In this document: positions 3,471 through 22,634 of the stretch, piece by piece
Numbering within the stretch: position 1 is the first letter of the stretch
Layout of the letters: the number at the start of each line of letters is the position of its first letter
Assembly: GCA_002897895.1 (NCBI GenBank)
Contig: BDSY01000058.1
Coordinates: 40,109 to 104,108 of the forward strand
Length of the DNA: 64,000 bases
Source of the DNA: a bacterium BMS3Abin06
Lineage (GTDB): Bacteria > Nitrospirota > Thermodesulfovibrionia > UBA6902
Reading direction: 5' to 3'
Notes under the pieces: generated by a model
Told to the model about the DNA's origin: nothing
Databases searched by the model: none
The model's input: the letters and a program-made list of their open reading frames with translations, nothing else
Made by a program: the position numbers and the translations under genes

Positions 3471-3592
3471 ACTGACATCAGACCTCAATTTTTAGCTGAA
3501 CGAATTGAAGATGAGCTTGAAACCATAAAAGTATAAGTCACTATATCTCATGCAACTCTTCTCTGTTGAATTTTCTTATTTACGCCCTGAAA

Positions 3593-5080
3593 TCAAAAGG
3601 GCAGCTTGACCGGCAGTGATCCTTTAAAATTCCTTTCACCTTTTAAACATTTGATAACAGATACTTGTGCCTGTTTACTTGTATCGTATGCTGCAATGAG
3701 CAAATCCGCCTTCGGGAAATGTCCGAGCACGTAAGGACTCCCAAAGGATATCACGATTGAATTGCGGGAATTTTTTATAAGTTTCCGGATGATATTTATT
3801 TCATCGTCCCTGATACCTGAACTCCCTCCCCATGCAGCGATACTGGTGAAGAGGGCAAAGACGACTGTTTTCCGGAGAGACTCTTTTTCAGAGTCTTTGA
3901 TCCTGATATGTCCGGATATGAAATTTTTCAGAGTGGATAAGTCATGCTTGTTTTCATCAGCGGCAAATGCAAGAGAAAGACCCTGAGTATTTTTGATCGG
4001 CAGCACTCCGGGGGAGTCTTTCACAAGTGTGACGGACTTATCGGAAATTCTTTCGGAAAGCCCGGCATGTTCCTGATAATTAATTCCGGATTTTCGGATA
4101 TTTTTTATCTTTGATTTATATTTCAGAATTCTTTCCACGGCAGTGTCTATCGTCCCCTCATCAATCTTCCCTGATGCAACGGCCTGTTTAAGTTCTTCAA
4201 CAACCGAATCAGCATCTGCCGGATGAAGGAGGATGTCGCCCCCTGCATTTATGCACATTGCCGGGACATTTTCATATTCATTCAGGGCATGCATGTTCAG
4301 CGCATCCGTAAGAACAAGACCTTCATATCCCAAATCCGTTCTTAACAGGCCGGTTATCACTTTTTTTGAAAGAGAGGCAGGAAGTTCATCAATTGCCGGG
4401 ATGCTGAGGTGTCCGGTCATAATACTGCCGGCACCTGCTTTTACGGCTTCCCTGAAGGGGAATATATCCGTATTCATCAGCTCGTCAAAAGATTTGGAAA
4501 TAACGGGGAGGGCTATGTGGGAATCAATGGCTGTGTCGCCGTGTCCGGGGAAATGTTTGGCACAGCTTATCAGCCCTGCATCTTCAATGGTCTTTATGTA
4601 TGTTTTGCCGTACCATGAAACATTTTCCTGATTGTCGGAAAATGCCCTTGTACAGATTATCGGATTGTCGGGATTCCTGTTCACATCCATGACCGGTATG
4701 AGCGGCATATTGATTCCGATATCAATCGCTTCATGAGAAACAGCATTAATTACATCTTCGAGAATTTCCACGTCTGAGGAATTATTTTTATTGATTGCTG
4801 CGGCTACAGCCATCTGGCAGGGGAAATGAGTAGCTCCGTCTATTTGCTGTCCCACGCCCCGCTCTATATCGGATGCAATAAACAGGGGTGTTTCTGATAC
4901 AGACTGAAGTTTATTAATGAAAGTTTTTACTTCATTCCTTTTACCGCCAAACAGGATGAACCCTCCGATACCTTTTCGAACAAGTTCAGAAGCCCGCTCC
5001 TGATACTGAATTGAAGAGAGTTTTTCTCCATCAAGTCTGCTTATGATAAGTTGCCAGAGTTTTTGCTCAAGGCCGGACAT
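3593..5080 (-). CDS. Glycoside hydrolase family 3 protein (NagZ-like beta-N-acetylhexosaminidase / beta-glucosidase-like)
   Basis: KHFPGHGDT motif and GH3 N-terminal fold signature; 495 aa. Its first 144 nt lie inside direct-repeat copy 1. Confidence 0.7.
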   Translation of the reverse strand: MSGLEQKLWQLIISRLDGEKLSSIQYQERASELVRKGIGGFILFGGKRNEVKTFINKLQSVSETPLFIASDIERGVGQQIDGATHFPCQMAVAAAINKNNSSDVEILEDVINAVSHEAIDIGINMPLIPVMDVNRNPDNPIICTRAFSDNQENVSWYGKTYIKTIEDAGLISCAKHFPGHGDTAIDSHIALPVISKSFDELMNTDIFPFREAVKAGAGSIMTGHLSIPAIDELPASLSKKVITGLLRTDLGYEGLVLTDALNMHALNEYENVPAMCINAGGDILLHPADADSVVEELKQAVASGKIDEGTIDTAVERILKYKSKIKNIRKSGINYQEHAGLSERISDKSVTLVKDSPGVLPIKNTQGLSLAFAADENKHDLSTLKNFISGHIRIKDSEKESLRKTVVFALFTSIAAWGGSSGIRDDEINIIRKLIKNSRNSIVISFGSPYVLGHFPKADLLIAAYDTSKQAQVSVIKCLKGERNFKGSLPVKLPF

Positions 5081-5205
5081 AGAACATTATAAACTACTTT
5101 ACTGCTAAAACTCCTTGAGCCGCAGGGCATCTTTTAATGCCGGCAACATCCTTTTTACGCAGGCCCGCCCTTCTTCAATGGCTTCTGACGCCCGATCGAA
5201 TTCGA
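4937..5205. repeat. 269-bp direct repeat, copy 1 (left boundary of island)
   Basis: Identical by eye to 16003..16271. Contains the 5' end of the GH3 gene plus the native patatin/GH3 intergenic junction. Confidence 0.9.
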
Positions 5206-5223
5206 AGCGCACAAAAAAACTCT

Positions 5224-5270
5224 TGACTTTTGGCTTCCAAAAAGTGTATAAGTATAGTATAATATACTTA
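5224..5270 (+). promoter_or_regulatory. Sigma70-like promoter (TTGACT-17-TATAAG) overlapping palindrome TAAGTATA-N6-TATACTTA upstream of the ArsR-family gene
   Basis: -35 at 5224..5229, -10 at 5247..5252, inverted repeat at 5249..5270. This layout is typical of an autoregulated repressor operator. Confidence 0.5.
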
Positions 5271-5280
5271 AGGAGTAAAA

Positions 5281-5676
5281 ATGAAAGTTGAGGCCGAGTC
5301 TTTTAAGGTTCTTTCGGTAGAAACCAGAATAAAGATTATTGAAATGCTAAAGGCAGGGCCACTCCCTGTGAATACAATAACAGAAGCATTAGGGATTAGC
5401 CAATCAGCAGTATCACAGCATCTTCGCGTGCTAAAGCAAGCCGGTTTAGTTACAGACGAAAGAAGAGGTTATCACATCTTCTATTCATTGAATAAAGATA
5501 AACTCGACAAGTACCAACAGGAACTACTAAAGGTCTGCACATGTGGCTGCAAACTTGCCAAGAGAAAACAGATTTCCGAGACAAGAGAGGCGCTGTTAGA
5601 ATATAAAAAAAGACTTGAAAAAGAAATAAAAGATGTGGGAAAAAGAATCAGGGACCTCGAAAAAGCGGCAGGGTAA
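5281..5676 (+). CDS. ArsR/SmtB-family transcriptional regulator with C-terminal CTCGC motif and coiled-coil tail
   Basis: Winged-HTH signature TITEALGISQSAVSQHLRVLKQAGLV, followed by KVCTCGCKL and a charged heptad-like tail. Confidence 0.75.
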   Translation: MKVEAESFKVLSVETRIKIIEMLKAGPLPVNTITEALGISQSAVSQHLRVLKQAGLVTDERRGYHIFYSLNKDKLDKYQQELLKVCTCGCKLAKRKQISETREALLEYKKRLEKEIKDVGKRIRDLEKAAG

Positions 5677-5698
5677 CCTTATATTTTTTCTTTTTAAT

Positions 5699-5722
5699 TT
5701 AAGTATATGCTAATACACTTAA
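5699..5722 (+). promoter_or_regulatory. Palindromic operator-like motif TTAAGT-N12-ACTTAA immediately upstream of the peptide-1 RBS
   Basis: TTAAGTATATGCTAATACACTTAA. The same architecture recurs at 12547..12570. Confidence 0.5.
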
Positions 5723-5734
5723 AGGAGGTGGCCT

Positions 5735-5929
5735 ATGTGCCAGGGGGGCATAGCTATAAGTCTAAAAAATAATAATTGTGGTTGTGAAGCGAAATTTGAG
5801 GAGAGAATTATAGGCAAGGAGGATCTGCTTACACGGTTAAATGAATATAAAAGAAATTTAGAATCGGAACTTGTAATAGTCAATAGCAAGTTAGAATCAG
5901 CGTCTTCCGCCGAGAAAGGAGGTGAGTAA
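5735..5929 (+). CDS. Small protein (64 aa) with NCGCE motif and a coiled-coil tail resembling the ArsR C-terminus
   Basis: Strong SD AAAGGAGGTG. MCQGGIAISLKNNNCGCEAKFEE...LNEYKRNLESEL. Its stop overlaps the SD of the next gene. Confidence 0.5.
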   Translation: MCQGGIAISLKNNNCGCEAKFEERIIGKEDLLTRLNEYKRNLESELVIVNSKLESASSAEKGGE

Positions 5930-5931
5930 GC

Positions 5932-6051
5932 ATGGCAGATACAAAAAAGGATACCAAGAAAAACGGAACATTAGGCAATGTTGTAAAAGAAATTAAGACA
6001 TCTAATTGCGGATGCGGTTGTGGTTGTATCCCTCCGCCATTCAAAAAATAA
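5932..6051 (+). CDS. Cys-Gly-repeat micro-protein (39 aa): MADTKKDTKKNGTLGNVVKEIKTSNCGCGCGCIPPPFKK
   Basis: Perfect SD AAAGGAGGTGA six nt upstream and a strong terminator downstream. A paralogue sits at 12643..12756. It is not in the ORF track because it is too short. Confidence 0.6.
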   Translation: MADTKKDTKKNGTLGNVVKEIKTSNCGCGCGCIPPPFKK

Positions 6052-6060
6052 CAGAGGACT

Positions 6061-6098
6061 TTGTGGGGAAGAGAATTCTCTTCCCCACAAAATTTTTT
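6061..6098 (+). terminator. Rho-independent terminator (15-bp perfect stem TTGTGGGGAAGAGAA/TTCTCTTCCCCACAA followed by a T-run)
   Basis: Read directly from the sequence. It lies between the peptide gene and the MoaD-like gene. Confidence 0.8.
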
Positions 6099-6112: not shown

Positions 6113-6385
6113 ATGAAAATTAAACTTTATGCCAATCTGCGTGATATTGTCGGAAAAGATGAATTAGAAATGGAACTAAAAGAACCCGTTTCGCTCATTG
6201 AGTTTTTGAGAAATATTTCTAATGATTATGGAGAAAAAATGAGGAAATTCTTATTCAAAGAAACAAATGAAATTGCAGAATCTCTAATTATATCTATTAA
6301 TGGCGAAGTCATTAAGGAAAATAAATCTATTTTCTTATCAAATAAAGATGAGCTATCAATCTTATTACCTTTAGCGGGGGGATAA
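6113..6385 (+). CDS. MoaD/ThiS-like ubiquitin-fold sulfur-carrier protein (ends in Gly-Gly)
   Basis: 90 aa with a C-terminal ...LLPLAGG. The pattern is MoaD-like. Confidence 0.65.
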   Translation: MKIKLYANLRDIVGKDELEMELKEPVSLIEFLRNISNDYGEKMRKFLFKETNEIAESLIISINGEVIKENKSIFLSNKDELSILLPLAGG

Positions 6386-6661
6386 TTGCAACGGATTGAA
6401 CATGTTATAGCTGAGATTGACCAATGTACAGGCTGTAATATGTGCACGTTAGCCTGTTCCATGGCACAAAAAGGGGCATTTAATCCAAGATACTCTAAGA
6501 TAAAGGTTCATCAAGAATTGATAGGCCTTGTTACAAAGATAGAATTTATTGAACAATGCGATATGAGTCTTTTAAGCCAATGTAATTTGATAGATTCTGA
6601 GCCGCTTTGTACTAAATATTGCATTTTTGATGCAATTAAATTTAAAAAAGTGGAGGATTAA
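6386..6661 (+). CDS. Small Cys-rich 4Fe-4S ferredoxin-like protein
   Basis: CTGCNMCTLAC (CxxCxxCxxxC) plus four further Cys. TTG start directly after the MoaD-like stop. Confidence 0.4.
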   Translation: MQRIEHVIAEIDQCTGCNMCTLACSMAQKGAFNPRYSKIKVHQELIGLVTKIEFIEQCDMSLLSQCNLIDSEPLCTKYCIFDAIKFKKVED

Positions 6662-6662
6662 A

Positions 6663-8006
6663 ATGAGTAATATTTTATTAATACGGCCTCATCCGGTAGT
6701 AGATGATACTAAAAATTTTCCTACCGAATCGCCTCCAATTGGTATAATCTCTCTTGGAAGTTTCCTGCGATCTAAGGGTATGGATGTCAAAGCCATTGAT
6801 TTATGCACTGACCCACAAACAGATATTGTTTCTGAAATCTTAAAAATTAAACCTGATATTGTTGGTATATCATCAATGACTTGCGACTTCCCCTCTGCCT
6901 TGAAAATTGTTGATCAAATCAAGCGACATTTTGATATTCCGACAGTTTTAGGAGGAGCACATCCAACTATATTTCCCAAGGAAGTTCTACAGAATCCCTC
7001 TATAGATTACGTAATAATTGGTGAAGGAGAATATGCCTTTCATGAGCTTATAATCGCGCTTAAGAATGATAAAGCATTCAGTGAAATAGCCTCTTTAGGT
7101 TACAAAGAGAATGGGTCGATTTTTACAAACCCGCGAAGACCATTTATTGATATTAATACTCTGCCCTTCCCTGATTACAGTTTCCTTGATAATGAGAAAT
7201 ACATTGATTTTGGAGAAAGATATCTTGGTTTTAGACACTTAGTAGCTGTTATCAGCAGGGGATGCACTAACAGATGTTCCTTTTGCGCTCAGCATCAGGT
7301 CTGGGGCAACCAGTTTAGATTCTTTTCTCCTGAGAGGGTGGTCTCTGAATTGAAAAGGTTGATGCAGGAATATAATGTTGAAGGCTTTTGGTTTAAGGAT
7401 AGCGTCCTCACAGTTAAAAACTGGACAATTCCATTTTGTGAGGAGATAAGCAGGCAAAAATTGAATGTTAAATGGGCGTGTTTAGCAAGGGTGGATCAGG
7501 TAGATAAAGAACTTATTAAAAGTATGAAGAAAGCCGGTTTAGTAAAATTATGGATAGGTGCAGAATCTGCTTCCGATAGAATTCTTCAGTTACTCAATAA
7601 ATGGATTACAGTGGATCAGACACGAAAAGCTTTTCGTATATGTAAAGACGAGTGTGTTGATACTGCAGCCTTTTTTATGTTTGGCCTCCCAACAGAAACA
7701 GTAGATGAGATGGAGTTAACCTTTGAGTTGATCCGTGAAACGAACCCTAAGCCATTGCATTTGGCAATTTATCACCCATTGCCAGGAACAGAATTGTACG
7801 AAAAATACAATGGGGCAGATGTCATAAAACATGCAAATCCCAGAGAGTTAGTCTTTGACATGGCCTGTATGTCAACAGGACCTGTGAGTAAAGAACTTGT
7901 TCAGGAGATATACGATAGCATTTGTAACTACTTCATCAAGAATGGCTCAAAACCTGACTTTAAAGAATTTAAGAGAATAGCCTCATTTCAGGAAGCGAGG
8001 GTTTAA
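6663..8006 (+). CDS. B12-binding-domain radical SAM enzyme (class B rSAM)
   Basis: N-terminal Rossmann-like B12-binding domain, then CTNRCSFC (CxxxCxxC). No SPASM-type C-terminal Cys cluster is visible. The start is chosen at the ATG after SD GGAGGA rather than the track's 6627. Confidence 0.7.
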   Translation: MSNILLIRPHPVVDDTKNFPTESPPIGIISLGSFLRSKGMDVKAIDLCTDPQTDIVSEILKIKPDIVGISSMTCDFPSALKIVDQIKRHFDIPTVLGGAHPTIFPKEVLQNPSIDYVIIGEGEYAFHELIIALKNDKAFSEIASLGYKENGSIFTNPRRPFIDINTLPFPDYSFLDNEKYIDFGERYLGFRHLVAVISRGCTNRCSFCAQHQVWGNQFRFFSPERVVSELKRLMQEYNVEGFWFKDSVLTVKNWTIPFCEEISRQKLNVKWACLARVDQVDKELIKSMKKAGLVKLWIGAESASDRILQLLNKWITVDQTRKAFRICKDECVDTAAFFMFGLPTETVDEMELTFELIRETNPKPLHLAIYHPLPGTELYEKYNGADVIKHANPRELVFDMACMSTGPVSKELVQEIYDSICNYFIKNGSKPDFKEFKRIASFQEARV

Positions 8007-9875
8007 TTGCTATACGGATATGCAGGAAAGATTCTCAGGATTAACCTAACAACATCCAAAATTACCAAAGAAGATATTCCAGAAGATTTCTACCAAAAGT
8101 ACCTCGGTGGTAATGGTTTTGGTGCACGACTACTTTATACAGAGCTGAAACCTAAAATAGATCCACTGAGCAGTGAAAATATTCTCATATTTGCAACAGG
8201 TCCTCTGAACGGCGCCATGATTCCAATGGCATCAAAGCTTTGTGCAATCTCAAAATCTCCTTTAACAGGAACATTTATGGATGGATTCTGCAGCGGGAGG
8301 ATTGGTTCTGAACTGAAATATGCCGGTTATGACATCCTTGTGATAGAGGGTAAGGCTGATAAGCCTGTCTATCTATTTGTCGATGATGACATTATTCAAT
8401 TAAGAGACGGAATGTCCCTATGGGGAAAAGATACATTTACAACCCAAATAATGATAAAGAACGAGTTAAAAGACGAAAGCGTTCAAGTTGCCTGTATTGG
8501 CCCGGCAGGTGAAAATTTGGTAAGGTATGCCTGCATTATAACAGAACAAAGGGCTGTTGGAAGTGGCGGGTTGGGCGCTGTCATGGGGTCTAAGAATCTA
8601 AAGGCAATAGCAGTTCGTGGGAGTAAGTTAGTCTCTGTATTTAACACTGCTAAATTAGAGCAATTTGTTCAACGGATAATAGTAAAGATCAAAGAAGAGC
8701 CAGCAGCTCAAGTTCTTTCAAAATACGGCACTGCGGTAGTTACGTCGGTTTTGCAATATATTGGAGGACTTCCAACGAAAAACTGGCAGTCAGGTATATT
8801 CCCGGATAGTAAGGCGCTTTCGGCAGAAACACTTGTCGATAAATATACACAGAAAAACTTATCATGTTTTGCCTGTATGATCCCATGTGGACATTATTCT
8901 GTCGTTAAAGAAGGCCCATATAAAGGGGCGATTACTAATGGTCCGGAATTTCAAAGCATAGGCGTTTTTGGCCCATTGACTGGAAATAAAAGATTGGATG
9001 CAATTATCATGGCCGATAGACTTTGCGATGAATACGGCTTAGGACAGATATCGGCAGGGGTTTGTATATCTTTTGCCATGGAATGTTTTGAGCGAGGACT
9101 TATTACCAAGAAAGATACCGATGGGATAGAGTTGAGATTTGGCAATCATGAAGCAATGATAAAGATGCTTAGAAAGATAACTTACAGGGAAGGGATAGGG
9201 GATATTCTTGCCGAAGGGGTTAAAAGGGCATCAGCTATTTTAGGAAGAGGTACAGAAAGATATGCCATCCATGTAAAAGGGATGGAGATGGCATGCTTCT
9301 GTCCCCGGGTTTTAAAGACACAGGCCTTTGGTTTTGTTGTCTCCTCAAAAGGACCAAGCCACAATGAAGTGCGTATTACAGCAGAATTGGGAAGATTAAT
9401 TCCTAATGACTTAAAGAACGGCTTAGGCTATTTGGCTAAAGAACTGATGGATTGGAGTGCAATAGCCAATTCATTAATTTGGTGTCTTAGTGCTGAAAGG
9501 ATTTTGGATATAAAATTATCCGAAGAAGTAGTAGAGATGCTCAACTTTACGACGGGAATGGATTTTGATAAAACAGAATTAGTTAAGATCGCTGAAAGGA
9601 TTCACAATTTGGAGCGTGCATTCAATATCAGGGAGGGTTTTAGCAAGCAGGATGATGTGCTTCCAAAAAGATTTCTGAAAGAGGCAATTCCGGAAGGACC
9701 TGCAAAGGGTCTGAAAATAAACAAAAAAATACTCAATGCAACTATCGATGAATACTATGCTGCCAGGGGGTGGGATAAAGGAGGCAGACCTACTATGAAT
9801 AAACTTTTAGAACTCGGATTAGAGGATGTAATGGTATATATAAATGATGAGGAGAGAATGCCTGCAGGAAAATGA
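8007..9875 (+). CDS. aor: Aldehyde:ferredoxin oxidoreductase family (tungsto-/molybdo-pterin) enzyme
   Basis: AOR N-terminal signature MLYGYAGKILRINL...LGGNGFGARLLY; 622 aa. TTG start abuts the rSAM stop. Confidence 0.8.
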   Translation: MLYGYAGKILRINLTTSKITKEDIPEDFYQKYLGGNGFGARLLYTELKPKIDPLSSENILIFATGPLNGAMIPMASKLCAISKSPLTGTFMDGFCSGRIGSELKYAGYDILVIEGKADKPVYLFVDDDIIQLRDGMSLWGKDTFTTQIMIKNELKDESVQVACIGPAGENLVRYACIITEQRAVGSGGLGAVMGSKNLKAIAVRGSKLVSVFNTAKLEQFVQRIIVKIKEEPAAQVLSKYGTAVVTSVLQYIGGLPTKNWQSGIFPDSKALSAETLVDKYTQKNLSCFACMIPCGHYSVVKEGPYKGAITNGPEFQSIGVFGPLTGNKRLDAIIMADRLCDEYGLGQISAGVCISFAMECFERGLITKKDTDGIELRFGNHEAMIKMLRKITYREGIGDILAEGVKRASAILGRGTERYAIHVKGMEMACFCPRVLKTQAFGFVVSSKGPSHNEVRITAELGRLIPNDLKNGLGYLAKELMDWSAIANSLIWCLSAERILDIKLSEEVVEMLNFTTGMDFDKTELVKIAERIHNLERAFNIREGFSKQDDVLPKRFLKEAIPEGPAKGLKINKKILNATIDEYYAARGWDKGGRPTMNKLLELGLEDVMVYINDEERMPAGK

Positions 9876-9926
9876 AAAGAAATTATTGTACATAACAGCT
9901 TTATCAATTGAATGAGGTAAAAAATT

Positions 9927-10943
9927 ATGAATAACAGATTTTTCTCAACCCAAAAAGGCCACACAAAATTATGGATAACAATTGGAATAATTGTTCTTTT
10001 TCTGATTGCTATGGGCTTATTTATATTTTCAAACAAAAAACCTGCTGATGAAATAATTATAGGTTATAGTGCATTACGCATAAGCCTTCCTGTCTTTGCT
10101 GCAAAAGAAAAAGCTTATTTTGCCGGAGAAGGTTTGAATGTTAAATTAGTAAGGTTTGACACTGCTCAACCTTTAATGACTTCTCTTGTTGCCGGCAGCG
10201 TCCGGATAGCCGGTTATACGGCCTTGCCAATAACTTATAATGCCATGCTCAGAAGTAAAACAGATCTGTATTTTGTTACAGCAATGCTTGAAGACCAAAA
10301 ACATAGAATAAGTTATCTGATTGTTCCCAAAGATACTCCGGATACTTTTACGATTGCTGAGTTAAAAGGCAAAAAGATTGGTATTCTTCCAACAGTTGCA
10401 TACAGGGCATGGTTAGAAGAAATACTGAAATTTAACGAAGTAGATCCTTCAGATGTTAAAATTGTGCAAATTACTCCGGCTCTTACTCCTTCCGCATTAG
10501 AATCCGGTCAAGTTAATGCACTCTTTACTAATGATCCTGCTGCTACAACAATTCTACAACGAGGAATCGGTAGATTGCTTAGTAAAGAAGTTGAAGTTCC
10601 AAAAATATTTGGAGAGCAATTTGTTTTTGGCAGCTTTAATATTAGAAAAGACTTTGCAGACAGCAATCCTGAGATAGCAGCAAAAATAGTTAGGGCATTA
10701 GATAAGGCAGTAACATTTGTTAATAACAATCCGGATGAAGCAAAACGGATAATGAAGAAATATTTACATGAATTACAAAAACCTTTTGTGGATTTCTACC
10801 CGGATGCCCTTTATCAAACCACTACAGAAGTTGATCCTGAAAAATTCCAGGATATTGCAGATAAATATTTAGAAATTGGAATAATCCAGAAGCCATTAAA
10901 GGTTGAGCATTTGGTTATTTCCGAAAAAATTTTTTTAAAATGA
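9927..10943 (+). CDS. ABC transporter substrate-binding protein, NitT/TauT (SsuA/TauA/ThiY-like) family
   Basis: N-terminal signal/anchor followed by an NMT1-like fold pattern. Confidence 0.6.
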   Translation: MNNRFFSTQKGHTKLWITIGIIVLFLIAMGLFIFSNKKPADEIIIGYSALRISLPVFAAKEKAYFAGEGLNVKLVRFDTAQPLMTSLVAGSVRIAGYTALPITYNAMLRSKTDLYFVTAMLEDQKHRISYLIVPKDTPDTFTIAELKGKKIGILPTVAYRAWLEEILKFNEVDPSDVKIVQITPALTPSALESGQVNALFTNDPAATTILQRGIGRLLSKEVEVPKIFGEQFVFGSFNIRKDFADSNPEIAAKIVRALDKAVTFVNNNPDEAKRIMKKYLHELQKPFVDFYPDALYQTTTEVDPEKFQDIADKYLEIGIIQKPLKVEHLVISEKIFLK

Positions 10944-10947
10944 AAGC

Positions 10948-11667
10948 ATGATTGAAATAAAAAATCTTAAAAAGAAATTTTTTTGCAATGGCAGCAATAA
11001 ATCCTTGTTTTCCGGATTTGATTTAGTAATCAGAAAAAGCGAGAAGATTGGACTTTTCGCACCAAATGGAAGTGGAAAAAGCACTCTTTTAAATATTTTA
11101 GCAGGAGTTGATAAAGATTTTGCCGGCACGGTTTCTATAGAAGGGAAACGTATAAGCTATATGCACCAGGACACTAATGCAACCTTAGCTCCCTGGTTTA
11201 CTTGTGAAAAGAATATTTTGCTTGTAAGGAAATATCATCACTTAGGCATTGAAAAAGGGAAAGCTTTACTTAAACGGTTTGTTAATGAAATAGAAATCAA
11301 CTTTTCTTTAGACCAATATCCTTTTATGCTTAGTGGCGGCCAGAGACAAATAGTTGCACTTCTGCGGGCATTGATATTTGAACCGGATGTTTTATTATTG
11401 GATGAGCCTTTCTCTGCTCTTGACATTGAAAAACGAGCTGCTTTTATAGAGTTTTTAACAAAACACTTCACTAATAATCTTACAGTAATAATGTGCTCTC
11501 ATAGAGGGGATGAGGTTAAATCATTGCTTGACAGAGCTGTAATTCTAGAACATCAGTCAGAAACAAGGATTACGATGGATATTTGTCGTTCCAAGTTCCA
11601 CTCTAAACAAGAATTTGAACAGATTATCTCTAAAATCAGATTTAAGAAAAACGGACATGAAATATAA
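10948..11667 (+). CDS. ABC transporter ATP-binding protein (NitT/TauT family)
   Basis: Walker A GSGKST, signature LSGGQRQ, Walker B LLLDEP. Confidence 0.8.
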   Translation: MIEIKNLKKKFFCNGSNKSLFSGFDLVIRKSEKIGLFAPNGSGKSTLLNILAGVDKDFAGTVSIEGKRISYMHQDTNATLAPWFTCEKNILLVRKYHHLGIEKGKALLKRFVNEIEINFSLDQYPFMLSGGQRQIVALLRALIFEPDVLLLDEPFSALDIEKRAAFIEFLTKHFTNNLTVIMCSHRGDEVKSLLDRAVILEHQSETRITMDICRSKFHSKQEFEQIISKIRFKKNGHEI

Positions 11668-12403
11668 GACCTCACTTATAGGGATTTTTTCGGCGGTTAC
11701 TATCTGGCAAATCATTGCCTGGTTAAAAATATTCAATCCAATTTATTTTGCCTCGCCCTATGAAGTAATTGCTGAATCAATCAAAATGATTCAGGGAGGC
11801 GCTGTTTTCATAGACCTTACACTCACTATTTACAGAATAGCTGTCAGTGTTATTATATCCTCACTTATTGGCATACCTCTTGGCATTGCCTTTGGTTATT
11901 TTGCTCGTATCTATAAATATGTCGGCGAAATAGTGGATTTCCTGCGTTCAATCCCGCCAATTGTAATTTATCCATTGCTCCTTATTGTCTTGGGACCCGG
12001 AGATAGTTCAAGAATAGGCGTTGCTCTTTTTGGCTCAATAGTTGTTTTGGTTCTTATTATTTCTAACGGGTTATTTCAACAAGCGCCATTGAGAAGACAA
12101 TATTTTGCATCTCTTGGAGCCAATAAGGTTCAGCTCGTAAACCACATTGTCTGGTATGAAGCGCTGCCTCATGTTATGGTCGCTTTAAGAACAGCAGTAT
12201 CCCTATCCATTATTATTATAGTGGTTACAGAAATGCTTGTTGGCGCACAATATGGTTTGGGGACAAGGGTACAGAACGTTCAAATTACCAGCAACATTCC
12301 CGATTTATTTGTCACTATCATTATTATTGGTTTAATTGGTGTTTTATTTAATAAAACCTTAATCTGTCTTGATAAGAAGCTTGTTTTTTGGAAATCTAAT
12401 TGA
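11657..12403 (+). CDS. ABC transporter permease (binding-protein-dependent inner-membrane component)
   Basis: Hydrophobic throughout. The start is set at the ATG overlapping the ATPase stop. Confidence 0.7.
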   Translation: MKYKTSLIGIFSAVTIWQIIAWLKIFNPIYFASPYEVIAESIKMIQGGAVFIDLTLTIYRIAVSVIISSLIGIPLGIAFGYFARIYKYVGEIVDFLRSIPPIVIYPLLLIVLGPGDSSRIGVALFGSIVVLVLIISNGLFQQAPLRRQYFASLGANKVQLVNHIVWYEALPHVMVALRTAVSLSIIIIVVTEMLVGAQYGLGTRVQNVQITSNIPDLFVTIIIIGLIGVLFNKTLICLDKKLVFWKSN

Positions 12404-12546: not shown

Positions 12547-12570
12547 TTAAGTATATGCTTATTAACTTAA
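12547..12570 (+). promoter_or_regulatory. Second copy of the operator-like palindrome TTAAGT-N12-ACTTAA
   Basis: TTAAGTATATGCTTATTAACTTAA, about 70 nt upstream of the third peptide gene. Confidence 0.5.
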
Positions 12571-12642: not shown

Positions 12643-12756
12643 ATGGCTGACAAAAGCAAAAAGAAGTCTTGTGGCTGTGGATGCGATATGCTGAAGCAAT
12701 CTAGCCGCAAAGCCGCAAAAGACGAGAAAGAGTCAAAAGTCATAAGTAAGAAGTAG
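12643..12756 (+). CDS. Cys-Gly-repeat micro-protein (37 aa): MADKSKKKSCGCGCDMLKQSSRKAAKDEKESKVISKK
   Basis: Same SD AAAGGAGGTGA and MAD-K-rich N-terminus plus CGCGC core as 5932..6051. Not in the ORF track. Confidence 0.55.
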   Translation: MADKSKKKSCGCGCDMLKQSSRKAAKDEKESKVISKK

Positions 12757-12854: not shown

Positions 12855-13991
12855 ATGAAAAAATTAAATATTGAAGAAATTAGAGAACTATCCGAGAAGC
12901 TTGCATCTGAGAAATTGGCGCCACGTGCCGCAGAGATTGATCAGAACCGTACCTTTCCCTGGGAGAACATTCGAGCACTTGGAGAAGCTGGTTTCCTTGA
13001 GTTGATCATTTCTGAGGACAACGGTGGCTTAGGATTTGGGCGAGTCTGCTTTGCTTCGGTTGCAGAGGAGATAGCTAAGGCCTGCGCTTCCACCGCTCTT
13101 ATATATGTTTCTCACTCAATCGTGACAAAGGCGATAGAACTTGCAGGTAGCGAGGCTGCAAAGAAGAACTGGTTAACTAAAATGTTAACAGGACAATCGC
13201 TTGGAGCGTTCGCTGTCCACGAGCCTGACTCCGGCAGCAACTCCGGAGCCATCACCACATTGGCAAAGAAGGAAGGCGATCACTATATCGTAAATGGTTC
13301 AAAATTTTTCATTACTTCAGCCGGGGAGGCCGACTTCTACCTGGTCCTCGTCAGGACTGACCCGGAAAAGGGGCCTCAGGGTATGAGCACATTGCTCATT
13401 GAAAAAAACACTCCCGGTCTTTCCTTCGGTCAACACGAAGATAAGATGGGTCTGACAAGTACTTCCTCAAGGGAGATGTTTTTCAGCGATTGCCTTGTAC
13501 CGAAGGAAAATCTGATAGGCAATGAAGGTGAGGGAACACAGGTTATTGGGAAAACTGTAGTTGGTTTGGGGTTCTTCGGAGCTGCCGCGATATCTGTCGG
13601 AATCGCAAGATCAGCCACTGAACTTGCAATCAAACATGCCAAGGAAAGAGCCATAGCAGGACAACCCATTGCCGTTCATCAAGCCGTTCAGTTCATGATC
13701 ACGGACATGATTCTTGGGAATGAAGCCGCAGAAGCATTTCTCAAAGTATGTGCTGCAAGAGCTGACTCAACTCAAGGCGCTGCCGTTATTAATGGGTTTA
13801 AGGCTAAGCTTTTAGCCTCTGAGATGGCTGTGGATGTTACAAACAAGGCAATCCAGGTTATGGGTGGTCATGGATACTGCCGGGATTATATAGTTGAAAG
13901 GCTTTTTCGCGACGCCCGGGGATTGACGCTTCACTTCAAAACTTCCGAGTGGCTTCGACAGGATATTGCCAAGGCAGCATTGGGATTGTAA
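12855..13991 (+). CDS. Acyl-CoA dehydrogenase
   Basis: ACAD fold pattern; 378 aa; good SD. Confidence 0.8.
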   Translation: MKKLNIEEIRELSEKLASEKLAPRAAEIDQNRTFPWENIRALGEAGFLELIISEDNGGLGFGRVCFASVAEEIAKACASTALIYVSHSIVTKAIELAGSEAAKKNWLTKMLTGQSLGAFAVHEPDSGSNSGAITTLAKKEGDHYIVNGSKFFITSAGEADFYLVLVRTDPEKGPQGMSTLLIEKNTPGLSFGQHEDKMGLTSTSSREMFFSDCLVPKENLIGNEGEGTQVIGKTVVGLGFFGAAAISVGIARSATELAIKHAKERAIAGQPIAVHQAVQFMITDMILGNEAAEAFLKVCAARADSTQGAAVINGFKAKLLASEMAVDVTNKAIQVMGGHGYCRDYIVERLFRDARGLTLHFKTSEWLRQDIAKAALGL

Positions 13992-15988: not shown

Positions 15989-16002
15989 TTTCGGGCGTTA
16001 TC

Positions 16003-16271
16003 CCTTTTACCGCCAAACAGGATGAACCCTCCGATACCTTTTCGAACAAGTTCAGAAGCCCGCTCCTGATACTGAATTGAAGAGAGTTTTTCTCCATCAA
16101 GTCTGCTTATGATAAGTTGCCAGAGTTTTTGCTCAAGGCCGGACATAGAACATTATAAACTACTTTACTGCTAAAACTCCTTGAGCCGCAGGGCATCTTT
16201 TAATGCCGGCAACATCCTTTTTACGCAGGCCCGCCCTTCTTCAATGGCTTCTGACGCCCGATCGAATTCGA
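16003..16271. repeat. 269-bp direct repeat, copy 2 (right boundary of island)
   Basis: Identical to 4937..5205. It carries an orphan 5' fragment of the GH3 gene on the minus strand (16003..16146) and supplies the last ~33 codons of the patatin gene. Confidence 0.9.
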
Positions 16272-19549: not shown

Positions 19550-21088
19550 TCATATTGATTTTTCTTCTATATCATATTTCTTTATTTTATACCCTATCTG
19601 CCTGGATGTAATTCCAAGAAGCCGCGCTGCTTTTGCCTGAACCCAGCCTGTTTTTTCAAGGGCATTAAGAATATTCGATTTTTCAATTTCCCCGATATTC
19701 GCTGTTAACGATGCCGACTTGCCGGAACTTTTAGGACGCTGAATACTCAGAGAAACAGGCAGGTCCGAGGCCGTGATCAGCTCTGAAGGCGACATAATGA
19801 CTAATCTTTCAATTGTGTTTTCAAGTTCCCTGACATTCCCGGGCCAGTTATAATTCAAAAAGACCTGCAAAGCGCTTTTATCAAGGACAACGGAGCGATT
19901 ATTTTCCTGATTGAACTTTTTCAGGAAGTGATCAATCAGGACAGGAATGTCTTCTCCCCTGTCACACAGGGGGGGCAGGAAAAGCGGTATCACATTAAGC
20001 CTGTAATAAAGGTCTTCCCTGAATTTTCCCTGTGATACCAGATGTTCAAGATTTCTGCTGGTTGCCGTTATGATCCTGACATCAACCTTGGTGGTTTTTT
20101 CACTCCCGACACGTTCAAACTCTCTTTCCTGAAGTACCCGCAAGATTTTCGGCTGGAGTGTCGGTGGAAGATCGCCGATCTCATCAAGAAATATGGTGCC
20201 CTTGTTTGCAAGCTCGAATTTGCCGCATCGCGAAGCAATAGCGCCGGTAAAAGCTCCCTTTTCATGGCCGAAGAGCTCGGACTCCAGAAGCCCTTCGGGT
20301 ATGGATGCACAGTTGAATTTTATGAAAGCCTCTTTGCTTCTGGGACTCATATAATGAATCGCTTTTGCAAACAGCTCCTTTCCCGTGCCGCTTTCACCGC
20401 GAAGAAGAACGGTTGCCTTTGATGGAGAGACGCGGTGAATGGCCTCAAATACCTCCTGCATTCTGTCTGACTGGCCGATAACATTTTCAATGCTGTATTT
20501 CCCTTTTAATTCTCTCTTTAAATCTTCTTTTTCTTTTTCAACCTCTTCATAGCTCTCCCAGAGTTTAATAAACTGGGCGATTAATGAGGCTACAATCTTC
20601 AGAACTCTGAGGTCATCATCAACGCCTCCCTGCTTTTTTGAATAAATTCTGTCTACACTCAAAACTCCCAGAACTTCATTCTTCAGCATTATCGGGACAC
20701 AGAGGAAAGATATTCCGTCTTTTTCAGGTCTTGAACCTGTCTTGTTGAGAAACAAGGGTTCTTCCCCGATATTGGGAATCACCATTGGAATCTTTTTTTC
20801 CAGTACCCGGCCCACAATACCTTCCCCGATACGATATTTCCCCTTTTCAATATTGTTTTTTGTAAGCCCGTGCGCTGCAACAATGCGCAGCTCTCTTGAT
20901 AAAGGATCAAGTAAAAATACGCAACCCCTTTGCATCTCAAGAAGACTGCCCAGAGTCGATATTACAGAGAGGAGGTTTTTATCAAGGTCAAAGGACGTAG
21001 TGAGAACCTTGCTGACTTCGAGAATGGCCGAAAGCTCCCTGTTTTTGCGAACAATCAGATCGGTCTTTTTATTCACGGCTGCTTTCAT
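19550..21088 (-). CDS. Sigma-54-dependent transcriptional activator with N-terminal GAF domain
   Basis: GESGTGKE Walker A, GAFTGA motif, C-terminal Fis-type HTH. Confidence 0.85.
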   Translation of the reverse strand: MKAAVNKKTDLIVRKNRELSAILEVSKVLTTSFDLDKNLLSVISTLGSLLEMQRGCVFLLDPLSRELRIVAAHGLTKNNIEKGKYRIGEGIVGRVLEKKIPMVIPNIGEEPLFLNKTGSRPEKDGISFLCVPIMLKNEVLGVLSVDRIYSKKQGGVDDDLRVLKIVASLIAQFIKLWESYEEVEKEKEDLKRELKGKYSIENVIGQSDRMQEVFEAIHRVSPSKATVLLRGESGTGKELFAKAIHYMSPRSKEAFIKFNCASIPEGLLESELFGHEKGAFTGAIASRCGKFELANKGTIFLDEIGDLPPTLQPKILRVLQEREFERVGSEKTTKVDVRIITATSRNLEHLVSQGKFREDLYYRLNVIPLFLPPLCDRGEDIPVLIDHFLKKFNQENNRSVVLDKSALQVFLNYNWPGNVRELENTIERLVIMSPSELITASDLPVSLSIQRPKSSGKSASLTANIGEIEKSNILNALEKTGWVQAKAARLLGITSRQIGYKIKKYDIEEKSI

Positions 21089-21113: not shown

Positions 21114-22634
21114 TTAAACCTGCAGCTTCTTCCCGGCTGCCAGTTTGTTCAGGGCATTTATGTAAGCTTTGGCAGATGCAATGATAATATCGGTATCGGC
21201 CCCGTGGCCGTTGACAGTCCGGCCTGCTTCTTCAAGTGAACAGACGACTTCACCAAGGGCGTCGGTGCCGCCTGTGATAGCCTTGACTTCATACTTGAGC
21301 AGTCTGCTTTTAGTGCCGGTTATTAAAGTGATTGCCTTGAATACCGCATCAACAGGCCCGTCTCCGTACCCGGTTTTCTCAATCATTTCTCCGTTAACTT
21401 TGAGTTTGAGAACGGCAGTCGGCTTTTGATCTGTGCCGGATGATACGCTCAGGCCTGTGAGACTGTATATCTCAGGCACCATTGTGAACTCTTCGGAAAC
21501 AAGCGCTTCAATGTCTTCATCATAAATTTCTTTTTTCTGGTCGGCCAGTTTCTTAAAACGTTCAAAAGCGCTGTTGACTTCTTCATCACTTAATGTATAG
21601 CCGAGTTCATCAAGTCTCGTCCTGAATGCATGGCGGCCCGAATGTTTGCCGAGGACAAACTTTGTTTTATGTAACCCGATTGTCTCAGGTCTGATAATTT
21701 CATAGGTTGATTTTTCTTTCAGGAGCCCGTCCTGGTGTATCCCTGATTCATGTGCAAAGGCATTGGCGCCGACAATAGCCTTGTTGGGCTGGACGGATAT
21801 CCCTGTGATTTTTGTAACAAGCCTGCTGCTGCGCATAATCTCTTCTGTATTGATATTTGTGTCGGCATTAAATAATTCACGCCTTGTCCTTAAAGCCATT
21901 ACAACTTCTTCCATGGAGCAGTTGCCCGCGCGTTCTCCGATACCGTTAACAGTGCATTCAACCTGGCCTGCTCCGTTAAGAACGGCTGAAAGAGAGTTTG
22001 ACGTGGAAAGTCCGAGATCATTATGGCAGTGCACCGAGATAACGGCCTTATCAATATTCTTTACCCTCTCACAGAGGGTTTTTATCATTGCCCCGAATTC
22101 GCCGGGAATGCTGTAGCCGACTGTGTCAGGAATATTCACTGTTAATGCGCCTGCCTCAATAACCGCCTCTACAACTTCACAGAGATACCCTGTGTCGGTA
22201 CGGGTCGCATCCATTGGTGAAAATTCAACGTCATCTACAAAACTCTTTGCAAGCTGAACCATTTGCACAGACCTTTTAAGGGCTTCTTTACGGTCAATAC
22301 GAAACTGGTATTTCAGATGTATATCGGAAGTGGAATGAAATGTGTGAATTCGTCTCCTGGGTGCCTCTTTAAGCGATTCCCATGCACGTTTGATATCCTC
22401 TTCTTTTGCCCGGGCAAGGCTGCAGATAACAGGGCCGTCGACTTCACCACCGATGGTTTTAATTGCCTCAAAATCACCCGGCGAAGCTATAGCAAAACCG
22501 GCCTCGATAATATCCACTCCAAGGCGTGCAAGCTGTCTTGCAAGGCGGAGCTTTTCCTCGACATTCATGGATGCACCGGGTGATTGCTCCCCGTCTCTCA
22601 GGGTTGTATCAAAAATTTTTATTATCCTCATCAC
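21114..22634 (-). CDS. leuA: 2-isopropylmalate synthase
   Basis: N-terminal FDTTLRDGEQ; 506 aa. Confidence 0.85.
   Translation of the reverse strand: MMRIIKIFDTTLRDGEQSPGASMNVEEKLRLARQLARLGVDIIEAGFAIASPGDFEAIKTIGGEVDGPVICSLARAKEEDIKRAWESLKEAPRRRIHTFHSTSDIHLKYQFRIDRKEALKRSVQMVQLAKSFVDDVEFSPMDATRTDTGYLCEVVEAVIEAGALTVNIPDTVGYSIPGEFGAMIKTLCERVKNIDKAVISVHCHNDLGLSTSNSLSAVLNGAGQVECTVNGIGERAGNCSMEEVVMALRTRRELFNADTNINTEEIMRSSRLVTKITGISVQPNKAIVGANAFAHESGIHQDGLLKEKSTYEIIRPETIGLHKTKFVLGKHSGRHAFRTRLDELGYTLSDEEVNSAFERFKKLADQKKEIYDEDIEALVSEEFTMVPEIYSLTGLSVSSGTDQKPTAVLKLKVNGEMIEKTGYGDGPVDAVFKAITLITGTKSRLLKYEVKAITGGTDALGEVVCSLEEAGRTVNGHGADTDIIIASAKAYINALNKLAAGKKLQV

Follow-up and report, generated by a model that had tools for sequence, protein, structure and literature searches.

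We analysed a 64,000-nucleotide stretch of contig BDSY01000058.1 from the Nitrospirota bacterium BMS3Abin06 (hereafter called the window) and found that a small regulator gene near its start is followed by a gene whose product, by profile comparison, is homologous to the regulator's own C-terminal tail. Three co-directional open reading frames (ORFs) lie between positions 5281 and 6051: an ArsR/SmtB-family regulator, a 64-residue protein and a 39-residue micropeptide. A Shine-Dalgarno-like sequence precedes each of them, and is very strong for both small ORFs. ArsR/SmtB sensors are the textbook system by which bacteria read metals, and to our knowledge every sensory site described for them is located within the winged-helix dimer or at its edges. 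The features of the unit are these:

5223-5258, forward strand: promoter-like hexamers of the regulator operon, either TTGACT and TATAAG about 18 nt apart or TTGGCT and TATAGT 17 nt apart (consensus match only)
5250-5269, unstranded: operator-like palindrome O1, AAGTATA-gtataa-TATACTT (perfect match)
5281-5676, forward strand: ArsR/SmtB-family regulator, 131 residues (PF01022, E 1.2e-15; NF033788, 92.8 bits against a cutoff of 55)
5536-5550, forward strand: codons C86-T-C88-G-C90, the regulator's sole cysteines, in the loop from alpha5 to the tail helix (from the sequence)
5557-5670, forward strand: tail helix, residues 93-130, an extended alpha6 (AlphaFold2; family-conserved pattern)
5701-5720, unstranded: operator-like box O2, AAGTATA-tgctaa-TACACTT (one mismatch)
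5735-5929, forward strand: 64-residue stand-alone tail homologue (profile homology, AlphaFold2, synteny)
5932-6051, forward strand: uncalled 39-residue micropeptide MADTKKDTKKNGTLGNVVKEIKTSNCGCGCGCIPPPFKK (homologous CGCGC peptides elsewhere)
6060-6091, forward strand: strong intrinsic-terminator-like hairpin of 14 bp with 7 G-C pairs, then a T-run; probably the end of the three-gene unit

The regulator belongs to the ArsR/SmtB family (57.5 bits against PF01022, where the cutoff is 22), and it falls below the cutoff of SdpR and of every other named ArsR equivalog tested. It scores 37.2 bits against the 150 required for CmtR (NF047906) and has no alpha4 cysteine; 44.2 bits against 155 for BigR/SqrR (NF040642), with no cysteine before residue 86; and 51.6 bits against 115 for TsoR (NF045707), on which our literature search returned nothing usable. 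The classical alpha3 As(III) site ELCVCD(L), of the E. coli R773 ArsR type, is absent from the sequence. Indeed, residues 1-85 contain no cysteine at all. The only three, C86, C88 and C90, are clustered in the motif KVCTCGCKL.

The AlphaFold2 model of the regulator (mean predicted local distance difference test score, pLDDT, 84.7) has a winged helix-turn-helix core in which alpha5 spans residues 72-85. All three cysteines fall inside a low-confidence loop (residues 86-92), and residues 93-130 form one long helix (block-mean pLDDT 87-97 over 101-130). A preliminary description of this DNA, made from the sequence without database searches, had set out the same two ORFs, the missing alpha3 site, and a cysteine motif placed straight after alpha5 and followed by a helical tail; sequence and model agree with it on each of these points. 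The core is familiar. In sequence and fold comparison, residues 5 to about 85 match NmtR, SmtB, CzrA, SrnR and Protein Data Bank (PDB) entry 6j05, and by fold the matches are SrnR, CzrA, SmtB and HlyU, with 6j05 at a TM-score of 0.55. None of the solved ArsR structures covers the tail helix, the matches stopping at residue 85 or thereabouts.

A library search revealed a regulator subfamily of about 130-145 residues that can be aligned end to end, with the consensus VCxCGC, a variable linker and then L..Y...LE.EL..V...I. The hydrophobic repeat of the tail helix, L..Y...L..EL..V...I..L, is conserved across the family. The C-x-C-G-C motif is invariant or nearly so in 31 tails, which were selected with a profile that already contained it. 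About half of the regulator's relatives have the long tail helix, and several of the tail-less regulators retain CxCGC or CxCxC at the C-terminus. Position 78 in alpha5, a tyrosine in the window (Y78, 5512-5514), is a cysteine in most homologues outside the window's clade (LExC...VCxCGC), giving four cysteines per monomer; within the clade it is Tyr or Phe.

The second ORF has a strong Shine-Dalgarno sequence (AAAGGAGGTG) and encodes a protein with cysteines at positions 2, 15 and 17 and no histidine. AlphaFold2 predicts a disordered, cysteine-bearing N-terminus and a helix over residues 28-62 (block-mean pLDDT 89-98 over 31-60). The preliminary description had aligned this protein by eye with the regulator's tail (CGC, some 15-18 residues, then L/N-EYK-K/R-x-LE) and had read it as a stand-alone copy of the tail module. 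Pairwise tools gave a divided answer. BLASTP reported no similarity between the regulator and the 64-residue protein; Smith-Waterman alignment scored 56, against 24.6 ± 4.9 for shuffled sequences, and none of 2,000 shuffles reached that score. Both sequences are short and of biased composition, and profile methods had to be used. A profile built from the tails of 25 other regulators ranked the 64-residue protein second (E 1.1e-5, 21.4 bits) out of the 1,111 six-frame ORFs in the window, behind only the regulator itself, and hhalign matched the small-protein family to the regulator tails with a probability of 98.7% (E 1.6e-16). A single-sequence word-index search with the 64-residue protein recovered only itself, and its family emerged when an alignment was used as the query. 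The tool alignment coincides with the one made by eye, with a 3-residue indel. Smith-Waterman, the tail profile and hhalign thus agree on a stand-alone copy of the tail module, and synteny across many phyla reinforces it: judged by these comparisons, the 64-residue protein is a genuine homologue of the regulator tail.

The two copies have been separate for a long time. Cognate pairs of tail and partner are no more alike than non-cognate pairs (permutation p 0.59), and identity is 46% among partners but 34% between partners and tails. These results point to an ancient duplication and not to repeated recent ones. On contact between regulator and partner the cognate-similarity test is neutral, speaking neither for it nor against it.

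The gene pair is conserved well beyond the window. We compared 80 genome loci that have a regulator homologue and scored their 17,721 ORFs with the tail profile, limiting synteny counts to the 75 loci in which 500 nt or more of downstream sequence was available. Tail-bearing regulators occur in 37 of the 75, and 26 of these 37 have a stand-alone tail protein immediately downstream on the same strand. Six loci combine a tail-less regulator with a downstream stand-alone tail protein. No stand-alone match to the tail profile occurs elsewhere among the 17,721 ORFs; all lie immediately 3' of a regulator, on the same strand. The window conforms to this arrangement, with a cysteine motif and an L..Y...L..EL..V...I helix encoded directly 3' of the ArsR gene on its strand. 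Carriers span many anaerobic phyla, with Nitrospirota, Thermodesulfobacteriota, Brocadiaceae, Omnitrophota and Spirochaetota among the groups represented. A split system is seen in loci L034, L075, L082, L084, L087 and L088: the regulator ends after the winged-helix core (about 100 residues), and the cysteine-plus-helix module is found only as the downstream small protein.

The partner proteins are 57-86 residues long and usually begin with MC (MCQP, MCCEP), the dipeptide standing at or near the N-terminus in all but 4 of 120. They carry clusters of cysteine and histidine (for example CTCGCCGCGCG and HHGGRHWRHHHGDSCGCGGH), a conserved F/R-rich stretch (FRRF or FxPRF) and a helix of the pattern LE.Y...L..EL.GVEERI. 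Ahead of that helix they have on average five cysteines (up to nine) and two to three histidines (up to nine). The family comprises at least 278 sequence clusters. Every label among them is 'hypothetical', no Pfam domain is on record, and our Pfam and NCBIfam searches left the small proteins without a family; no metallothionein family appeared among the matches at E <= 1. Of six typical members, five have DUF5320 (PF17253), a family of small proteins from anaerobes, ranked first or second among their Pfam matches (E 0.0066-0.038). These matches cover the C-terminal helical part and never the cysteine-rich N-terminus, the six members score 13.1-18.0 bits where the gathering threshold is 27, and the window's own protein has no match to DUF5320 at E <= 1. 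On such scores a distant relationship to DUF5320 is possible; we found no literature on the function of DUF5320/PF17253.

The third ORF was missed by gene finders and is missing from the public annotation of the same contig. Its start codon lies 2 nt past the stop of the 64-residue ORF (TAAgcATG), a spacing consistent with translational coupling, and its C-terminus, IPPPFKK, is a polyproline stretch of a ribosome-pausing kind. Lysine-rich ORFs of 27-47 residues with an invariant CGCGC lie 3' of the regulator or of the small protein in about two dozen loci, those elsewhere having strong Shine-Dalgarno sequences, and a CGCGC-type short ORF occurs within 900 nt downstream in 28 of the 75 loci. 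There are two subtypes. One ends in CGCGC-[IV]-PP-[VM]-K, as does the 39-residue ORF of the window; the other has an N-terminal CGCGC and a lysine-rich tail, as at 12643-12756 in the window and in L038, L046, L050, L051 and L052. In L012 a protein like the 64-residue one and a CGCGC peptide are fused as a single 97-residue ORF. When the window's 39-residue ORF is compared with its counterpart in L037 over 40 codons, stop included, 9 are identical, 18 differ synonymously and 13 non-synonymously. The fusion and the synonymous-rich divergence lead us to read the micropeptides as real genes. In many loci the CGCGC peptide is the final gene ahead of a convergent one. What regulator, small protein and peptide have in common is the thiolate motif, not the helix, and in the window the 39-residue CGCGCGC peptide may be the source of thiols that the 64-residue protein lacks.

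Operator-like boxes flank the regulator gene. The promoter consensus is matched at 9 of 12 positions in 5230-5258, and a TTGACA-N17-TATAAG layout also lies 5' of homologous regulators. O1 overlaps the -10 region and abuts the regulator's Shine-Dalgarno sequence; O2 begins 25 nt past the regulator stop and abuts that of the 64-residue ORF. The motif AAGTATA-N6-TATACTT, at up to two mismatches, occurs four times in the window where 0.28 are expected, a count that none of 100 shuffles reached. Many loci in different phyla have equivalent boxes 32-50 nt ahead of the regulator start and 13-27 nt past its stop. O1 and O2 of the same locus are slightly but reproducibly more alike (14.4 of 20 positions) than boxes paired across loci (13.8), and none of 5,000 permutations reached this. 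The boxes fit an autoregulated repressor that would bind them and thereby control the small ORFs as well. A T-run of six to eight bases lies a few bases past the regulator stop, just 5' of O2, in the window (5677-5700) and in most of the loci inspected (L008, L010-L014, L040, L044, L052, L053); it could be a weak terminator tail or an UP-like element of a second promoter.

The two other matches in the window are weaker. The one at 3529-3548, with two mismatches, lies between two unrelated genes and probably arose by chance. The other has 11 consecutive bases in common with O2, is weaker evidence than O1 and O2, and stands upstream of a second micropeptide:

12549-12568, unstranded: degenerate operator-like box AAGTATATGCTTATTAACTT (two mismatches; 75 nt upstream of micropeptide 2)
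12643-12756, forward strand: uncalled 37-residue micropeptide 2, MADKSKKKSCGCGCDMLKQSSRKAAKDEKESKVISKK (N-terminal CGCGC, lysine-rich tail)
12855-13991, forward strand: acyl-CoA dehydrogenase-family gene right after micropeptide 2 (Pfam ACAD N-terminal, middle and C-terminal domains)

Micropeptide 2 has the strong Shine-Dalgarno sequence AAAGGAGGTGA and ranks third in the window with the tail profile (E 0.034), through its cysteine motif only.

We took a census of 122 neighbouring proteins and listed 25 families, including all with at least three matching proteins. No enzyme or transporter dominates it, and only two families recur, CopD and acyl-CoA dehydrogenase. A CopD-family protein is encoded 28-100 nt after the micropeptide in ten loci (L011, L014, L017, L022, L025, L026, L027, L033, L042 and L074, of which L011 and L014 are close relatives). 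These are 155-168-residue CopD-family/DUF4149 membrane proteins with the motifs W.HLLSAVVWIGGI and IHFYRGL, scoring 32.3-44.3 bits against the PF05425 cutoff of 32.1. In nine of the ten loci (not L042) the spacer before the CopD gene is strongly structured (-16.7 to -28 kcal/mol over 55 nt) and lacks a T-run, a layout that resembles a translational or processing control element. In L038, L015, L047 and L013 an orthologue of the window's acyl-CoA dehydrogenase (50-74% identity) lies no more than about 230 nt past the regulator unit. The enzyme reaches no NCBIfam equivalog; its best sub-threshold matches are to acryloyl-CoA reductase and 3-sulfinopropanoyl-CoA desulfinase. Other neighbours include a CDF efflux protein (L024), an MFS transporter (L043) and unrelated enzymes.

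In the window the unit is followed by an unusual cluster (6113-12403) that encodes a MoaD/ThiS-like protein of 90 residues, a small 4Fe-4S ferredoxin-like protein, a B12-binding radical SAM protein, a tungsten-type aldehyde:ferredoxin oxidoreductase (AOR) and an SsuA/NMT1-type ABC transporter, whose components give weak NCBIfam matches to SaoX, SaoA and SaoP. We considered a link between the module and this tungsten/AOR cluster and rejected it: the adjacency is specific to this genome, and the 80 other regulator loci contain no homologue of the MoaD, radical SAM or AOR proteins, bar one weak AOR fragment, and the ferredoxin-like and ABC transporter genes are likewise missing there. The genes from MoaD to the ABC transporter are treated here as unrelated neighbours.

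The wider surroundings may have been rearranged. A 272-bp direct repeat, 99.6% identical between 4934-5205 and 16000-16271, flanks 10.8 kb of sequence within which the ArsR unit, the AOR cluster, the ABC transporter genes and the acyl-CoA dehydrogenase all lie. It is made up of codons 1-49 of a GH3 gene and of sequence that forms the 3' end of a patatin-like gene in the second copy. In contigs of related strains (L002-L004) homology to the window begins at 5213 and the upstream genes differ. Repeat and break together suggest a junction left by rearrangement or insertion, or else an artefact of assembly. In the related strain L004, genes for an Oxidored_nitro nitrogenase-like protein, a NifX-like protein and P-II proteins lie directly upstream of the ArsR unit. 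Elsewhere in the window, a GAF-domain sigma-54 activator lies beside a homocitrate/isopropylmalate synthase-like gene (19550-21088 and 21114-22634, both on the reverse strand).

Several known systems share parts of this design. The ArsR of Acidithiobacillus ferrooxidans (AfArsR) and CmtR have the same winged-helix alpha1-alpha5 core as the regulator. In AfArsR the sensory thiolates come from a flexible segment after alpha5. CmtR likewise uses a thiolate of that segment (PMC11672702), one cysteine of the C-terminal tail joining two in alpha4. Unlike either, the regulator has C-x-C-G-C in place of CC-x5-C or alpha4 cysteines, followed by a 38-residue helix, and its motif-plus-helix module is also encoded by an adjacent, separate gene. 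SmtB-SmtA and BxmR-BmtA likewise set an ArsR/SmtB repressor beside small cysteine-rich, histidine-containing proteins that it presumably controls, and in both sequence and fold SmtB ranks with the top matches to the regulator core. Here, by contrast, the partner is homologous to part of the regulator and is predicted to form a long helix and not a metallothionein fold, and the genes are co-directional with a second operator-like box between them.

CopY-CopZ of Enterococcus hirae, a copper repressor and its chaperone, and Cu(I)-thiolate cluster regulators are functionally analogous: a winged-helix repressor has a C-terminal CxC-type motif past the dimerization region, with a small partner for the same metal. 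CopY, with its C-terminal CxCx4CxC, belongs to the BlaI/MecI family and not to ArsR, and CopZ, an HMA protein with a ferredoxin fold, has no relationship to CopY; the present regulator is an ArsR protein for which copper is a candidate only, with CopD a recurrent neighbour. CutF, a nascent-peptide copper sensor encoded in the Rhodobacter capsulatus cutFOG operon, is a small ORF that has a cysteine motif and ends in a proline-rich one; a structured spacer separates it from a metal-homeostasis gene (PMC9973294). In the CopD loci the CGCGC-x-PP-x-K peptides are similarly followed by a spacer of 28-100 nt, structured in all but L042, and then the CopD gene. They differ from CutF in having no signal peptide and in placing the cysteine motif 1-3 residues ahead of the prolines; one micropeptide subtype has no prolines, and in many loci nothing co-directional lies downstream. 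Three elements were unmatched in Pfam, NCBIfam, the PDB and the searchable literature: the post-alpha5 CxCGC hinge with its long helix, the same module as a separate and apparently co-regulated protein, and the CGCGC micropeptide family. Our literature search on cysteine-rich partners of ArsR proteins likewise returned nothing on this module.

The module as observed consists of an ArsR/SmtB repressor with a C-x-C-G-C hinge, a 57-86-residue protein, one or more CGCGC micropeptides and, in many genomes, CopD. From the homology, architecture, synteny, boxes and composition we infer how it may work. We propose that the locus represents a small-gene module widespread among anaerobic bacteria, in which a thiolate sensor regulates its own expression and works with partners that buffer metal, and give this reading about even weight. 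A repressor dimer would occupy the palindrome O1 at the regulator's promoter, O2 ahead of the small ORFs and perhaps the 12549 box as well. The clustered thiolates of the hinge would capture a thiophilic ligand, most probably an ion of a soft metal. The hinge lies between the dimerization helix alpha5 and a helix that is likely to pair with its counterpart across the dimer; parallel helices may bring the hinge thiolates of both subunits together. Ligand binding would shift the geometry of alpha5 and alpha6, DNA affinity would drop and the repressor would be released. The derepressed small proteins and peptides, with their CGC-type motifs, would then bind, buffer or pass on the ligand, in the sensor-plus-buffer logic of SmtB/SmtA-type pairs of sensor and metallothionein. 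ArsR proteins with C-terminal alpha6 extensions, with cysteine sites outside alpha3 and alpha5 and with non-metal inducers are all established (PMC11672702); the two mentions of coiled coils in the review text searched concern DksA, not ArsR.

A transition or soft metal is favoured because the partners are rich in cysteine and histidine, with metallothionein-like CxC and CC motifs amid lysines, and because CopD and CDF proteins occur as neighbours and the core's nearest relatives are NmtR, SmtB, CzrA and SrnR. Cu(I) is the leading candidate, a tentative choice that we would not call probable.

A number of observations weigh against this proposal. The window's own partner is poor in cysteine, with three, and has no histidine. 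Across unselected full-length homologues only C86 is at least 90% conserved, and relatives at 58-61% identity (P0375-P0377, P0382/3) have lost all the motif cysteines while keeping the helix. A coiled-coil oligomer of the tail is suggested by the heptad-like pattern and by the isolated long helix, in models that are of monomers. A tblastn search of the window with the ten CopD proteins finds no CopD; those proteins also give sub-threshold matches to UPF0093 and DUF2269, and the CopD clan includes non-copper families. The recurrent acyl-CoA dehydrogenase is no obvious metal gene, and beyond the small ORFs neighbourhoods are very variable. Finally, all carrier loci come from metagenome-assembled genomes.

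What, then, could the module do if not buffer a metal such as copper? The preliminary description had seen in the three cysteines the classic As(III)/Sb(III) trigonal site and had suggested that the free-standing module could be a decoy, a chaperone or a heterodimerising modulator, any of which it may be. On the arsenic reading the regulator would be a sensor specific for As(III)/Sb(III) that uses C86, C88 and C90 as an S3 site, and the 64-residue protein a decoy or an arsenic chaperone. The cysteines are exactly three and lie in a flexible loop directly after alpha5. They are placed much like the C-terminal Cys95/96/102 site of AfArsR; PDB entry 6j05, which is that protein, matches the core by fold; and BMS3Abin06 presumably comes from a hydrothermal sulfide habitat, where arsenic is plausible. 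However, the spacing is CxCxC and not CCx5C, and the triad is not kept as a triad, since C86 alone is widely conserved and some relatives are cysteine-free. No arsenic-resistance (ars) family is among the 25 listed neighbour families, none was seen among the annotated genes of the window (about a third of its genes), and the recurrent transport-type neighbour is a CopD-family protein. The five cysteines and two to three histidines of a typical partner far exceed what an S3 site needs, and histidine is not an As(III) ligand. The arsenic reading thus finds no specific support, and we regard it as very unlikely. Less unlikely, though still improbable, is a thiol switch for a non-metal signal, in which the CxCGC hinge and the CGC-rich partners would be targets of oxidants, of sulfane sulfur or polysulfide, or of electrophiles, in the manner of SqrR/BigR or RexT, and the small proteins would provide thiols that are sacrificed or act as a relay. 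Disulfides formed by CXC motifs are strained and redox-active, the carriers are anaerobes of sulfidic habitats, and the sub-threshold matches of the recurrent acyl-CoA dehydrogenase, including 3-sulfinopropanoyl-CoA desulfinase, fit such chemistry; persulfide- and H2O2-sensing ArsR members are established (PMC11672702). Yet the BigR model is matched far below its cutoff and the alpha2/alpha5 cysteine pair that defines the class is absent, while the histidine-rich stretches of most partners and the CopD and CDF neighbours favour metal ions over sulfur or oxidants.

The system might also need no ligand. The tail would then be an oligomerization device, for example in a dimer of dimers bridging O1 and O2 some 450 bp apart, the small protein a dominant-negative that titrates the tail in a feedback loop, and the cysteines structural (a Zn knot) or incidental. 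Boxes at fixed spacing do flank the regulator gene in many loci, the helix persists in cysteine-free relatives, and ArsR members without inducer sites exist (PMC11672702). But several helix-less regulators keep the cysteine motif, the micropeptides have no helix and CGCGC is their sole invariant feature, and the richness of the partners in cysteine and histidine is hard to explain without a ligand; we think such a ligand-free device quite unlikely. We also tried and rejected a reading centred on the CGCGC ORF, as a precursor of a ribosomally synthesized and post-translationally modified peptide (RiPP) for the B12-radical SAM enzyme, or as a leader whose cysteine codons attenuate the MoaD, AOR and sulfonate-type transporter genes, the 64-residue ORF being incidental. 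The B12-binding radical SAM gene lies 0.6 kb downstream, with sub-threshold NCBIfam matches that include RiPP-modifying radical SAM models, and a strong hairpin and T-run follow the micro-ORF. Against this, the cluster is missing from the other 80 loci, apart from the AOR fragment already mentioned, the peptide is often operon-terminal, the last gene before a convergent one, and it is conserved beyond its cysteine codons. This reading strikes us as extremely improbable.

A more elaborate form of the metal-buffering proposal, speculative and in our judgement unlikely, is a partner switch. The small protein and the regulator tail would form a mixed coiled coil and pool their CGC thiolates in one polynuclear metal-thiolate cluster, so that the regulator-to-partner ratio and the metal load would together determine repression. 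The CGCGC-PP micro-ORFs would also serve as cytoplasmic nascent-peptide sensors of metal, working in cis to open the structured CopD spacer, by analogy with CutF. If true, this would be a layer of protein-protein control new to the ArsR family.

We know of little on metal homeostasis in strict anaerobes. If the proposed thiolate sensor with buffering partners works as outlined, these bacteria would have a new type of sensory site and a family of thiol-rich, metal-handling small proteins, and at least 278 clusters now labelled 'hypothetical' would gain a name. Annotation pipelines would be pointed to genes of 27-47 residues that they now skip; gene calls on the contigs examined omit the micropeptides. 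With a pair of boxes, a single regulator and no more than two or three tiny proteins, the module is compact and would also be attractive as a biosensor part.

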